A stretch of 6,346 nt of DNA from Escherichia coli (GCF_036507355.1 NZ_AP027881.1); one strand, 5' to 3'. Positions 1,426-6,346 are shown, counted from the stretch's first letter. A program made the numbers and translations. The notes: a model not told the origin generated them from the sequence alone.

Positions 1426-2432
1426 CCTTTCAGTTTAGCCTTAACCGGCGCATAACTTCAAGACTAACTCCTCTAAATCAATTACCAGTGGCTGCTGCCA
1501 GTGGCGCTTTTGCATGTCTTTCCGGGTTGGACTCAAGTCGATAGTTACCGGAACAGGCGCAGCAGTCGGACTGAACGGGGGGTTCGTGCATACAGTCCAG
1601 CTTGGAGCGAACTGCCTTCCCGGAACCGAGTGTCAGGCGTGGAATGAGATAAACGCGGCCATAACAGCGGAATGACACCGGTAAACCGAAAGGCAGGAAC
1701 AGGAGAGCGCACGAGGGAGCTACCAGGGGGAAACGCCTGGGATCTTTATAGTCCTGTCGGGTTTCGCCGCCACTGATTTGAGCGTCAGATTTTGTGATGC
1801 TTGTCAGGGGGGCGGAGCCTATGGAAAAACGGCAACGCCGCTTCCTTTTCTCTTCCTTTCCCAATTTGATTGCTACTAGCCTACTCCTTTACTTCTGAGC
1901 CGGTAACGCCCGCCGCAGTCTCACGTCCGGAGCGTAGCGACCGAGTGAGCGAGGAGGCGTAATTTCATCGACTCCTGCATTTTTCACTTACGCCCTACAG
2001 CTACATTTTTCACCTGCCAGGGGTCAGTTTGGATATAGAGAATTATTGTACGGTAAGCCTGTTTTTTGAACAGACTTACCTATAGCAATAGGGTGTACTC
2101 CCGCGCTATACGGCATTTTCAGAGGTTTGACCTTAATCGGATAACCTAAATGCGATACTGCAAGAGCGACAACTTAAAAGCGATAGCCACTGACGCAAAA
2201 TCAACCCCTTACGAACCAAGATTGGTTAAATAATGCGCTTAACGTACAAAAATTTCCGATCTCCAAACTGACCCCTTCTTCGCCTCTTATGTTTCTCGAA
2301 TGAATCGATGGGGACAGGAAATGTTTTGTGGCCACCGCCGCTTCGCCGGCACCACAAAACTGTCGGACAAGATGTGTTTTTGGAGTACCGCCGGCACCAA
2401 AAACATTTCATCAGGCGCAGCCTGATACCCTG

Positions 2433-2452
2433 AATTTCGTACGTACGAAATT
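2433..2452. repeat. Perfect 20-bp palindrome AATTTCGTACGTACGAAATT
   Basis: Exactly self-complementary; lies in a gene-free tract that also holds two tandem hairpin units (2323-2360, 2375-2405). Confidence 0.8.
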
Positions 2453-2850
2453 TTGCTTTTGTTCAGATCGAGGGCAGGATTCGCAAAGTGCTGGCGTTTG
2501 TGCTCACATCCTTTAGACGTTGCGATGCAGGATAGGGCAGACGCCGCAAAATGACGTCATTTGCGGTATCTGCCCCGAAAACAGAATGTTTTCTCCTGAG
2601 CCTGCAGCTGGCTCTCAGAACCCCTACCGCCTCGCAAAGCTCGTTGCTCAACGCCTCACGACCGCACAGTAAACTGTGCACCCGTTCACCGTTATCGATG
2701 GGGTTCAGCGAGCCTTTTGAGCAGTTCGCAGGATTTTAGCCGCTAAAATTCCGGCCAGGCATGTTCGTGCATAGCCATGCAGATGCGCAGAAATCATCAG
2801 GCGCGTTTTTCAGGGGTTGGTGCTGGGAAAGGTGCCGGAAACGGCCCGTT

Positions 2851-2909: not shown

Positions 2910-2944
2910 TGCTCATCACAGTAGCCAGTTAAGCAGAGGTTAGA

Positions 2945-3271
2945 ATGTTTGGGTTTTTTAAGAAAAAAAAGCTCTATGAAGAGATCTGTAAAGATGCAGG
3001 GATGGCTTTATCTGATGGGTTATTGGCCCAAGGCTTAGCGAGAAACAAAATAGAAGCAATGGGGGCTGGTGCTGTTTTTAGTCAGTCTTTGAGGGAGGCT
3101 GTTTCTCAAGGTTACAAGTCTTCTGATGCGATTGCTGAAGCAAGAAAAAACACATCTCATCATCTAGCTGCTAGAGGGTTTGATTTTGAAACGATCGCAA
3201 GTGCGATTGATGTTTTTTGTACTGCTACAGCATTTGAATCAATGTTAGATCTTGCTCGCGATAAAGGCTGA
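2945..3271 (+). CDS. Hypothetical cytoplasmic protein, 108 aa, low GC
   Basis: ORF with good SD (GAGG 6 nt upstream of ATG); no signal peptide; lysine-rich N-terminus (MFGFFKKKK). Bracketed by Xer sites 2 and 3. No family recognised. Confidence 0.6.
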   Translation: MFGFFKKKKLYEEICKDAGMALSDGLLAQGLARNKIEAMGAGAVFSQSLREAVSQGYKSSDAIAEARKNTSHHLAARGFDFETIASAIDVFCTATAFESMLDLARDKG

Positions 3272-3303
3272 ATATCGAGAGGAGTGACGGGTTGTTATCA
3301 TTA

Positions 3304-3330
3304 GCCTCAGAGTAGATTTGAGGCCTTTTG
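3304..3330 (+). terminator. Hairpin plus T-run after the 108-aa ORF, immediately upstream of Xer site 3
   Basis: GCCTCA-gagtagatt-TGAGGC followed by CTTTTG, 33 nt after the ORF stop; same stem as the site 2 hairpin. Confidence 0.4.
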
Positions 3331-3333
3331 GGC

Positions 3334-3361
3334 GGTGTATGCAGGAGATGTTATGGTAAAT
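3334..3361 (+). other. XerC/XerD-type recombination core, site 3 (GGTGTATGCAG-GAGATG-TTATGGTAAAT)
   Basis: XerD arm identical to sites 1 and 2; XerC arm and central region diverged; direct orientation. Confidence 0.7.
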
Positions 3362-4003: not shown

Positions 4004-4011
4004 CTAAAACG

Positions 4012-4112
4012 AAAAAACCGCCCTGCAAGGCGGTTTTTTCGAAGGTTCTCTGAGCTACCAACTCTTTGAACCGAGGTAACTGGCTTGGAGGAGCGCAGTC
4101 ACCAAAACTGTT
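4012..4112 (-). ncRNA. RNA I antisense copy-number control RNA, replicon 2
   Basis: Same reasoning as replicon 1 RNA I; terminator hairpin ACCGCCTTGCAGGGCGGT plus U-run at the 3' end. Ends approximate. Confidence 0.7.
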
Positions 4113-4693: not shown

Positions 4694-4885
4694 ATGAACA
4701 AACAACAAAAGACAGCCGTTAACATGGCTAAATTCATCCAGGATCAGTCCCTGCTTCTTCTGGACAGGCTTAATGAGCTGGATCTGGATCATGAGGCTGA
4801 TTTCTGCGAGAAACTCCATGAGGATGCGGAACGCCTTTACCGAAGCCTGTCAGCGCGCCTGAATGAGCAGCAGGACGGTGCGTAA
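4694..4885 (+). CDS. rop: Rop/Rom (RNA one modulator) homolog, 63 aa
   Basis: Same length as pMB1 Rop, with clear similarity along the whole protein as recalled (MTKQEKTALNMARFIRSQTLTLLEKLNELDADEQADICESLHDHADELYRSCLARF vs MNKQQKTAVNMAKFIQDQSLLLLDRLNELDLDHEADFCEKLHEDAERLYRSLSARL here). Confidence 0.85.
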   Translation: MNKQQKTAVNMAKFIQDQSLLLLDRLNELDLDHEADFCEKLHEDAERLYRSLSARLNEQQDGA

Positions 4886-5188: not shown

Positions 5189-5340
5189 ACATCGCTCCTT
5201 CAGTTCATACATCACTTTTACAACACTTTTACAACACTCCTTCGGCCTGTACATCACTTTTACAACACTTTTGCATCACTTTTACATCATTTATACATCA
5301 CTTTTACATCATTCCTTCAGCTCATACGTCACTTTCATCC
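5189..5340. repeat. Tract of roughly 11-bp tandem repeats (core ACAxCACTTTT), iteron-like
   Basis: Repeated units ACATCACTTTT / ACAACACTTTT / GCATCACTTTT / ACATCATTT across about 150 bp, bracketed by direct repeats CCTTCAGTTCATACATCACTTT (5197-5218) and CCTTCAGCTCATACGTCACTTT (5314-5335). The ORFs the track predicts here are repeat-translation artefacts. Confidence 0.7.
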
Positions 5341-5526
5341 TCTGTGCCATTTGTACATCACCCCCTTCCTGAACGTGCTGACAGCGGGTTTTCCGGCTGC
5401 GCCGGCAACGCTTCACGGCCACGCAATAAATTGCGTCCCCGTTCACCGTTTTCGGATGGGAAGAACGCCGGAAACAGGACTTCCCCTGGCTGAATGGTGT
5501 GAATTTCCGCGCTATGCACTTGCGCG

Positions 5527-6346
5527 GGCACTGTTGCAAAGTTAGCGATGAGGCAGCCTTTTGTCTTATTCAAAGGCCTTACATTTCAAAAACTCTGCTT
5601 ACCAGGCGCATTTCGCCCAGGGGATCACCATAATAAAATGCTGAGGCCTGGCCTTTGCGTAGTGCACGCATCACCTCAATACCTTTGATGGTGGCGTAAG
5701 CCGTCTTCATGGATTTAAATCCCAGCGTGGCGCCGATTATCCGTTTCAGTTTGCCATGATCGCATTCAATCACGTTGTTCCGGTACTTAATCTGTCGGTG
5801 TTCAACGTCAGACGGGCACCGGCCTTCGCGTTTGAGCAGAGCAAGCGCGCGACCATAGGCGGGCGCTTTATCCGTGTTGATGAATCGCGGGATCTGCCAC
5901 TTCTTCACGTTGTTGAGGATTTTACCCAGAAACCGGTATGCAGCTTTGCTGTTACGACGGGAGGAGAGATAAAAATCGACAGTGCGGCCCCGGCTGTCGA
6001 CGGCCCGGTACAGATACGCCCAGCGGCCATTGACCTTCACGTAGGTTTCATCCATGTGCCACGGGCAAAGATCGGAAGGGTTACGCCAGTACCAGCGCAG
6101 CCGTTTTTCCATTTCAGGCGCATAACGCTGAACCCAGCGGTAAATCGTGGAGTGATCGACATTCACTCCGCGTTCAGCCAGCATCTCCTGCAGCTCACGG
6201 TAACTGATGCCGTATTTGCAGTACCAGCGTACGGCCCACAGAATGATGTCACGCTGAAAATGCCGGCCTTTGAATGGGTTCATGTGCAGCTCCATCAGCA
6301 AAAGGGGATGATAAGTTTATCACCACCGACTATTTGCAACAGTGCC
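5527..6346 (-). mobile_element. IS26 (IS6 family), complete 820-bp copy
   Basis: 14-bp terminal inverted repeats GGCACTGTTGCAAA at 5527-5540 and its reverse complement at 6333-6346; length 820 bp; encodes the canonical Tnp26 sequence. The element ends at the last base of the window. Confidence 0.95.
5579..6283 (-). CDS. tnp26: IS26 transposase Tnp26, 234 aa
   Basis: Translation MNPFKGRHFQRDIILWAVRWYCKYGISYRELQEMLAERG...GEMRLVSRVFEM matches IS26 transposase as recalled. The track ORF carries a 6-codon upstream extension (MLMELH) that is probably not translated. Confidence 0.95.
   Translation of the reverse strand: MNPFKGRHFQRDIILWAVRWYCKYGISYRELQEMLAERGVNVDHSTIYRWVQRYAPEMEKRLRWYWRNPSDLCPWHMDETYVKVNGRWAYLYRAVDSRGRTVDFYLSSRRNSKAAYRFLGKILNNVKKWQIPRFINTDKAPAYGRALALLKREGRCPSDVEHRQIKYRNNVIECDHGKLKRIIGATLGFKSMKTAYATIKGIEVMRALRKGQASAFYYGDPLGEMRLVSRVFEM

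Follow-up and report, generated by a model that had tools for sequence, protein, structure and literature searches.

Plasmids that carry an origin of transfer (oriT) as their only mobilization function, the oriT-only 'pOriT' plasmids, are common in Escherichia coli, and the use of a relaxase supplied in trans has been proposed for many of them (PMC10123127). The closest described systems are two cryptic plasmids: pBuzz, which according to the accounts of Moran & Hall 2019 given in PMC9282650, PMC7448864, and PMC8765060 is mobilized in trans by a B/O plasmid, and pSZECL_a, which the statements in PMC9282650 and PMC7448864 credit with two L/M-like oriTs and for which they propose in-trans mobilization. 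In staphylococci, the oriT mimics of the pWBG749 family are copied oriTs on non-conjugative plasmids that have no relaxase of their own, they are mobilized nonetheless, and their subtypes track the specificity of the helper (PMC8136818). Here we describe a 270-bp segment, positions 2306–2575, of a 6,346-nucleotide stretch of E. coli DNA (GCF_036507355.1, NZ_AP027881.1; this whole stretch is referred to as the window) that is likely a tandem array of four orphan oriT copies, or 'mimics', each usable by a relaxase acting in trans. This judgement applies jointly to an array drawn from four plasmid families and to its mobilization by helper plasmids. It draws on homology, position, architecture, conservation, and covariation, and the nicking and the mobilization itself are predictions, as are the exact nick positions, which were placed by analogy with R64, RP4, and RA3.

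Four candidate oriT copies in tandem

When the hairpin region was searched with BLAST in a library of 72,556 plasmids (7.3 Gb), it matched close relatives in small plasmids and, over short and nearly perfect stretches, large conjugative plasmids. For all four units, the match in the large plasmid (the putative helper) lies 59–79 bp upstream of an operon encoding an accessory protein and a relaxase and points away from that operon. Each unit consists of an inverted repeat and a MOBP-type, ATCCTG-like nick core; all four are on the minus strand in the same orientation, and their order along that strand is X, U, L, P. Based on sequence relationships, the likely helper families are Pantoea-type MPF_I plasmids for P, IncL/M plasmids of the pOXA-48 type for L, IncU/RA3-like plasmids for U (including their KorB operator), and IncX plasmids for X. 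Three reference oriTs were used as additional queries. The RP4 oriT matched the window at two ATCCTGC cores only, and the two places in the window that best resemble the RP4 nick core coincide with the cores of X and U. The ColE1/pMB1 bom site (nick ...CTGG/CTTAA, with a slash marking the nick here and below) returned only chance 7–9-mers from the window, and the MOBQ (RSF1010-type) oriT, an inverted repeat followed by TAAGTGCG/CCCT, returned nothing beyond chance.

The first-pass annotation of this DNA had drawn attention to a gene-free tract with a cluster of dyad symmetries at 2318–2452, and all four symmetries are present where they had been placed. Hairpin 1 is a perfect 9-bp inverted repeat with arms GTTTTGTGG and CCACAAAAC at 2323–2331 and 2352–2360, hairpin 2 is likewise perfect over 9 bp with arms TGTTTTTGG and CCAAAAACA at 2375–2383 and 2397–2405, the small hairpin TCAGGC-gca-GCCTGA occupies 2411–2425, and the perfect 20-bp palindrome AATTTCGTACGTACGAAATT occupies 2433–2452. 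The two tandem hairpin units, described as similar, are direct repeats of one another (repeat families D2 and D4); the loop sequence that they were said to share holds for hairpin 2 (CCGCCGGCA) but not for hairpin 1 (TCGCCGGCA), and what they have in common is the 8-mer CGCCGGCA. Folded as single-stranded DNA, the minus strand of 2318–2452 reaches −33.9 kcal/mol against a mean of −18.3 kcal/mol for 200 dinucleotide shuffles, none of which folded as well (z −5.77), and the plus strand behaves similarly (z −5.52), placing this density of symmetry beyond chance. The open reading frames (ORFs) of the tract are all ≤72 aa, and the three that were scanned had no Pfam match. Small ORFs over the hairpins (41–62 aa) were considered as genes and rejected, as they have no Pfam match and conservation tracks the nick cores and not the codons. 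Although the absence of a convincing gene over roughly 900 bp stands, this is not a single tract, because it is divided among a primosome-site homologue, a miniature element, the oriT array, and a cer-like site.

Strong predicted structure on both strands is also what would be expected if the region encoded a structured small RNA or contained several transcription terminators, and both a terminator-like match on the minus strand (2427–2409) and a T-rich run following the palindrome on the plus strand agree with such an origin. The only family to reach its gathering score in an Rfam 15 scan of the whole window was the RNAI of two replication origins, and the small RNA was dropped as an explanation because of this result. 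The single Rfam match overlapping 2318–2452, Gut-1, scored 21.9 bits (E 0.89), below its gathering score of 50. No promoter-like site occurs within the span, the only one of the tract being at 2070–2042 on the minus strand, and the one terminator-like match compares with 1.6 expected from shuffles. Further, it is the nick cores and not the stems that form the conserved blocks, and the homologous sequences are sites of DNA processing. A role as small RNA or terminators is hardly credible on this evidence. Of the other functions suggested by the first-pass annotation, an oriT was the right kind of element, but there is more than one: the span holds two complete copies with differing specificity and half of a third, the palindrome, whose partner nick region at 2471–2496 is outside the span. 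The fourth, IncX-type unit at 2520–2575 also lies outside and had been missed. A protein-binding region is an apt description of the palindrome, which is identical to an IncU KorB operator, but not of the remainder.

Units P and L share an R64-type architecture

Unit P (2306–2360, minus strand) is composed of the inverted repeat of hairpin 1, read 2360 to 2352 and 2331 to 2323, followed by the nick core ACATTTCCTG/TCCCC, with a predicted nick between 2315 and 2314, 8 nt past the proximal arm. Positions 2311–2339 are identical at 28 of 29 nt to the Pantoea MOBP/MPF_I plasmid pAHKW2b.2 (E 9e-4), where 79 bp separate the match from the downstream genes mobA (nikA-like) and traI, and the unit aligns with the oriTs of R64 and pOXA-48. 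It folds better than its shuffles (z −3.99), and its arms covary among the small plasmids: 93% of cells are paired, six changes are double-sided, and only 1 of 500 shuffles did as well.

Unit L (2361–2430, minus strand) contains the inverted repeat of hairpin 2, read 2405 to 2397 and 2383 to 2375, then the nick core ACATCTTG/TCCGAC, and includes the small hairpin at 2411–2425; its nick is predicted between 2368 and 2367. Over 2365–2397, 32 of 33 nt are identical to IncL plasmids of the pOXA-48 type (E 2e-5). There the likely start of a nikA-like mobA, which is followed by the MOBP relaxase gene traI, lies ~70 bp downstream of the match. In the alignment, the TCAGGC/GCCTGA hairpin is the counterpart of the GTCGGGGC..GCCCTGAC hairpin of R64 and pOXA-48. 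The nick core and proximal arm of L are almost invariant in 13 small plasmids, and plasmids of the size of pSZECL_a (2056–2058 bp) match 29 nt of the unit exactly. It should be noted that in the pOXA-48-type plasmid used for comparison (L006), the 'mobA' coding sequence is annotated at 2392–2919 from a GTG start that makes it cross the oriT. The true start is likely the ATG at 2603 (MSRSESRK...), and the over-extended annotation appears to be repeated across many pOXA-48 records.

The R64 oriT sequence used here was verified at 100% against NC_005014.1. R64, pOXA-48, the Pantoea plasmid, P, and L all present the same order of elements: a small GC hairpin, an inverted repeat, 8 nt, and the nick core. 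The cores read ACATCCTG/TCC in R64, ACATCTTG/TCC in pOXA-48 and L, and ACATTTCCTG/TCC in the Pantoea plasmid and P. The IncI/IncP consensus YATCCTG/Y is present as ACATCTTGTCC in L and ACATTTCCTGTCC in P, column for column with R64 and pOXA-48, both units have perfect 9-bp arms of which the proximal one ends 8 nt before the predicted nick, and the helper sites of both adjoin nikA-like and relaxase genes. The units differ from R64 in that R64 has nikA and nikB alongside and neither P nor L has them, in the shortened repeat of L, and in the sequence of the arms. As the arms are unlike those of R64, the units probably have the NikA specificity of the L-type and Pantoea-type helpers and not that of R64.

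Unit U includes a copied KorB operator

The nick region of unit U (IncU/RA3-like) occupies 2471–2496 on the minus strand and reads CGCCAGCACTTTGCGAATCCTG/CCCT, with a predicted nick between 2475 and 2474 and the palindrome 22 nt 3' of the nick. All 26 positions are identical to the 31-kb MOBP/MPF_T E. coli plasmid pYUXYEH3314-3 (E 1e-3), 59 bp upstream of its mobC-relaxase genes, and the minus strand of 2426–2500 is ~76% identical over 68 nt to the IncU plasmid pMBUI7, upstream of mobC-nic. The sequence GCGAATCCTGCCCT is common to the window and both helpers and is upstream of mobC in each helper. Both helpers have the core GCGAATCCTG/CCCT with a palindrome 22–26 nt after it, TTTCGTACGTACGAAA in pMBUI7 and TTTCGTGCGCACGAAA in pYUXYEH3314-3, and thus the same nick-then-palindrome layout as the window. 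Positions 2471–2500 had been considered as a fifth repeat resembling the arm of X (repeat family D1); they are the U nick region.

In the IncU plasmid RA3, the nick site is within the mobC promoter region, the adjacent palindrome IR-SnaBI is a site (OB/parS) for the ParB-family protein KorB, and 45 nt of oriT are enough for transfer (PMC4175270). The window palindrome at 2433–2452, for which no strand is assigned, is identical at 20 of 20 positions to the pMBUI7 copy at 12415 and contains the only SnaBI site (TACGTA) of the oriT region. Judging from the name and position of the site, IR-SnaBI would be exactly the sequence of the window palindrome. pMBUI7 has exactly three copies of the palindrome (12415, 26191, and 33645). 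One of the three is at mobCp/oriT, another near orf23–25, and another in the orf02 region, in agreement with the places given for the three KorB operators of RA3 (PMC7414963). The complete match and the agreement of the three copies together identify the palindrome as a copied RA3-type KorB/ParB operator, from the parS-oriT-mobCp region, that is part of the third oriT unit. Earlier candidates for this palindrome, a plus-strand terminator or a LacI-type operator, were displaced by the match to the IncU KorB operator. The MobC operator OM (IR4, AGCGTCTG^CCGCCGCT, between the −35 and −10 of mobCp) is present in pMBUI7 (AGCGGCGGCAGACGCT) and was found neither in pYUXYEH3314-3 nor in the window; in RA3, OM is dispensable for transfer when mobC-nic is expressed (PMC4175270).

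The palindrome varies in an informative manner. Among the small plasmids, 95% of cells are paired and nine changes are double-sided, none of 500 shuffles did as well, and slid controls reached 21–51%. Its center changes among the small plasmids yet stays palindromic (GTACGTAC, GTCCGGAC, GACGCGTC), and the helpers vary at the same central positions (GTACGTAC in pMBUI7 and GTGCGCAC in pYUXYEH3314-3), a combination that fits selection on protein binding. The full palindromes of pMBUI7 and pYUXYEH3314-3 given above thus indicate that the helper lineages differ at the operator center. The pYUXYEH3314-3 variant occurs three times in 7 kb of that plasmid (L020: 1915, 3548, and 6703), and two small plasmids (L011 and L018) have a half-and-half palindrome, TTTCGTGCGTACGAAA. 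A search of genome contigs (298 Gb) for the variant palindrome TTTCGACGCGTCGAAA returned scattered single matches in unrelated phyla, about as many as chance alone would give for a 16-mer. The KorB of RA3 represses the promoters of mobC-nic and of the transfer operon. A multicopy KorB operator might therefore act on the helper, either through titration of KorB that derepresses the transfer genes or by recruiting the IncC/KorB partition machinery, a speculative suggestion to which we give rather little weight. If correct, KorB titration would raise the hitchhiker's own mobilization.

Unit X is related to the IncX oriT

Unit X (2520–2575, minus strand; IncX/R6K-like) is a 41-bp near-palindrome at 2535–2575 followed by TATCCTG/CATCGCA, with a predicted nick between 2528 and 2527. 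It is identical at 37 of 38 positions to both inverted oriT copies of the IncX3 plasmid pC767_2 (E 1e-7), placing it with IncX, and one of these copies is 62 bp upstream of ddp1(taxA)-relaxase. The query containing X returned ~1850 plasmid records at 95–99% identity, nearly all of them through the 38-bp stretch. The unit has a fold z of −4.08, and inspection by eye of the X arms in pKpnB1_7 revealed several compensating changes. A duplicated and inverted R6K-type oriT is a trait of IncX plasmids, as PMC10123127 relates from Avila et al. 1996.

Conservation and modular shuffling among small plasmids

Twelve related small plasmids were retrieved from Escherichia, Klebsiella, Salmonella, Citrobacter, Enterobacter, Cronobacter, Yersinia, Serratia, and Pantoea. 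The L-type core is kept in all 12 and the P-type core in 11, and the two nick cores are 53–54 nt apart in 10 of the 12; the L core differs at two bases in the Pantoea plasmid, and the second core of the Citrobacter plasmid is ACATATCCTGTC. Unit X is present in 7 of the 12, as are the U nick region and palindrome. Nick cores and proximal arms are near-invariant, flanks diverge, and distal arms change by compensating substitutions, a pattern in the aligned sequences that shows purifying selection on the units. A lack of conservation of the dyad symmetries in related plasmids would, according to the first-pass annotation, have refuted its suggestion; in the homologous plasmids, they are kept with compensatory changes.

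The units also shift as modules, and X is on the opposite side of the P and L pair in p29807 and is missing from pPA3.0. This bears on whether the units could be inactive relics, the scars of cointegration or of relaxase-mediated recombination between oriTs. The units are truncated relative to the helper oriTs, they abut one another, each stopping a few to ~20 nt past its nick core, and their order varies (X upstream in p29807, downstream here, absent in pPA3.0), the last of which suggests assembly by recombination. Relics should decay, however, and the nick cores and proximal arms are near-invariant across genera while their neighbors diverge, the repeat arms and the palindrome change by compensating substitutions, and comparably short sequences, the 45-nt oriT of RA3 and a 31–44-nt core of R64, are known to be sufficient. 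We consider inactive relics unlikely, and an array of usable oriT copies accounts better for this conservation.

One small plasmid extends the pattern. p1_020031 (NZ_CP033397.1, 4097 bp) has the same four units and an R64-type oriT (GGTAATTGTAAGACGTTGCGGGCGACGGTATTACAATTGCACATCCTGTCC) at ~2250–2320 on the plus strand, in opposite orientation and abutting the same miniature element found in the window, for a total of five oriTs on a 4-kb plasmid. It is the sole examined carrier called mobilizable by MOB-suite, and the R64-type oriT may be the reason. The same plasmid is relevant to a possible function of the hairpins in replication, as a single-strand initiation or primosome-assembly site or another element of the ColE1 origin. 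The hairpins are in a non-coding tract downstream of an origin, and clustering of hairpins is typical of such signals, but in p1_020031 both rop and the miniature element intervene between the origin and the array. Moreover, the window has a homologue of the ColE1 primosome-assembly site elsewhere, at 1908–1965 (recognized from the window sequence and BLAST pieces), and the hairpins match relaxase-adjacent sequences in plasmids with unrelated replicons. A replication element is very improbable, and the oriT array remains the favored reading.

Additional features were observed beside the array in some of these plasmids. An extra orphan unit with an RP4-like core is present in a Serratia rubidaea plasmid (L014, minus strand near 139; GTAAAGTGGGCCCACTTTACATATCCTGCCCG) and upstream of the array in pPA3.0 (L004; ACATGTCCTGCCCG), which suggests that this plasmid group draws on a still wider set of oriT modules. 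Four small plasmids (L010, L011, L014, and L016) have a gene for a 66-aa VbhA-family antitoxin that ends a few bases before unit P, with no annotated toxin partner within the stretch that was fetched.

Mobilization in trans

No relaxase and no ribbon-helix-helix (RHH) accessory domain was detected among the window ORFs with Pfam, and a relaxase in trans is therefore the best explanation for the array. Under the proposed mechanism, a matching conjugative plasmid would share the cell with the small plasmid, and the helper's accessory protein (NikA/MobA, MobC, or TaxA) would bind the repeat arm beside the nick core. The helper relaxase would then cut within the ATCCTG-like core of the minus strand and remain on the 5' end, the type IV secretion system of the helper would export the single strand of the small plasmid, and the inverted repeat would refold in the transferred strand and help the relaxase to close the circle. 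With four different 'keys', the small plasmid could ride on any of four helper families.

Several observations weigh against this proposal. The units are shorter than the helper oriT regions, and the helper accessory proteins would have to accept these shortened sites. L is without the central part of the pOXA-48 repeat, U is without the RA3 MobC operator, the distal repeat arm of X is absent in four small plasmids, and the P-type helper is found mainly in Pantoea and its relatives, not in E. coli. MOB-suite types 145 of the 159 PLSDB carriers of the region as non-mobilizable, calls that reflect its reference set, and no curated oriT library vouches for the units. Balanced against the homology and conservation described above, we consider that this tiny, gene-poor plasmid, though typed as non-mobilizable, can probably ride with a co-resident conjugative plasmid that matches one of its units.

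The carrier plasmid and its surroundings

The carrier of the array is one complete copy, at 933–2909 on the plus strand, of a 1943-bp cryptic ColE1-type (ColRNAI) plasmid with 99.6–100% identity to pPK5074-2kb over its full length. Its only sizeable ORF encodes a 97-aa putative lipoprotein, and with oriT copies and no detected relaxase or accessory gene, it belongs with the oriT-only (pOriT) hitchhikers. The window has two ColE1-type origins (RNAI matches at 1323–1423 and 4009–4110 in the Rfam scan), and a pattern search identified three cer-like XerC/D cores (939–966, 2882–2909, and 3338–3361). Duplicate Xer cores, the left one at 939–966, flank the plasmid copy, which is here fused, via Xer sites, to a second replicon lying directly beside IS26 (5527–6346); the Rop gene is at 4694–4885. 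At most 53% of the window is covered by any one plasmid record.

A 256-bp miniature inverted-repeat element (MITE) of the Tn3 family (2020–2275, no strand assigned) separates the origin from the oriT array. Its 38-bp terminal repeats, GGGGTCAGTTTGGA...TAAG, are identical at 32 of 38 positions, and no clear 5-bp target duplication is seen at its ends (flanks TGCCA vs TTCTT). Copies of the element occur alone in many large conjugative plasmids at 76–100% identity, with at least 5000 records matching the query, and these stand-alone copies are almost never annotated. Beyond the array, a cer-like multimer-resolution site extends over ~2640–2909 on the plus strand (the left edge is approximate) and comprises accessory sequence and the XerC/D core GGTGCGGGCAAGGGATGTTATGGTAAAT at 2882–2909; it was recognized by its core pattern and is conserved with pPA3.0 and p29807.

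Two short modules follow the 1943-bp plasmid, 2910–3361 with a 108-aa ORF, bounded by the further Xer core at 3338–3361, and 3362–~4000 with an ORF for a 130-aa lipoprotein-like protein. The arrangement of modules across 933–~4000 looks like the outcome of Xer-mediated shuffling or cointegration. Downstream of the second origin and Rop, 5190–5340 holds approximately nine iteron-like direct repeats (ACATCACTTTTAC / ACAACACTTTTAC), and these are followed at 5400–5526 by a truncated cer accessory region that is cut by IS26.

Implications and comparison with known systems

Small ColE1-type plasmids such as this one are routinely typed as non-mobilizable, and for this reason models of gene spread leave them out. 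Should the array be functional, IncL (pOXA-48), IncX, IncU-like, and Pantoea-type plasmids could all move a 1.9-kb plasmid and anything fused with it. Among these four helper families, three are major carriers of genes for carbapenemases or colistin resistance. The 270-bp array also provides a natural test bed for the minimal sequence that each relaxosome requires, and it could reveal whether a hitchhiker manipulates its helper through a copied operator.

Unit U resembles RA3 in its core, GCGAATCCTGCCCT, and in the KorB operator palindrome TTTCGTACGTACGAAA that follows ~22–26 nt later (PMC4175270). It differs in that the window has neither the MobC operator (IR4/OM) nor the mobC promoter, the flank 5' of the nick matches the 31-kb E. 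coli relative and not RA3, and the carrier is without korB and incC. Unit X agrees at 37 of 38 positions with both IncX3 copies, including TATCCTG/CATCGCA; unlike R6K and the IncX plasmids, it is a single copy with no taxA or taxC, and its inverted repeat is longer and more perfect than that of IncX3. As for other ColE1-type plasmids, the array has the same general location as the ColE1 bom site, between the origin and the multimer-resolution site, and would serve the same purpose, mobilization by larger plasmids, but it has no match to bom and is accompanied by no mob genes. The ColE1-like plasmids pCERC7 and NTP16 bear NikA, whereas no nikA is present in the window and the array would depend wholly on helper proteins.

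The likeness to pBuzz and pSZECL_a is that of ~2-kb cryptic plasmids without a relaxase or accessory gene that have more than one oriT from I-complex or L/M plasmids. pBuzz and pSZECL_a are rolling-circle plasmids with two orphan oriTs in inverted orientation, while the plasmid described here is of the ColE1-type, with theta replication, and has four units from four families in direct tandem, one of them with a ParB-type operator. The staphylococcal mimics belong to a different phylum and relaxase family, and here four families are represented within one array in the Enterobacterales. No description of a four-unit array was found in the searchable literature, a body of work that does not extend to the original pBuzz study. 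Thus oriT-only hitchhikers are already known, and what this locus adds is four specificities within 270 bp, a ColE1-type carrier, and a ParB-type operator copied from a helper.

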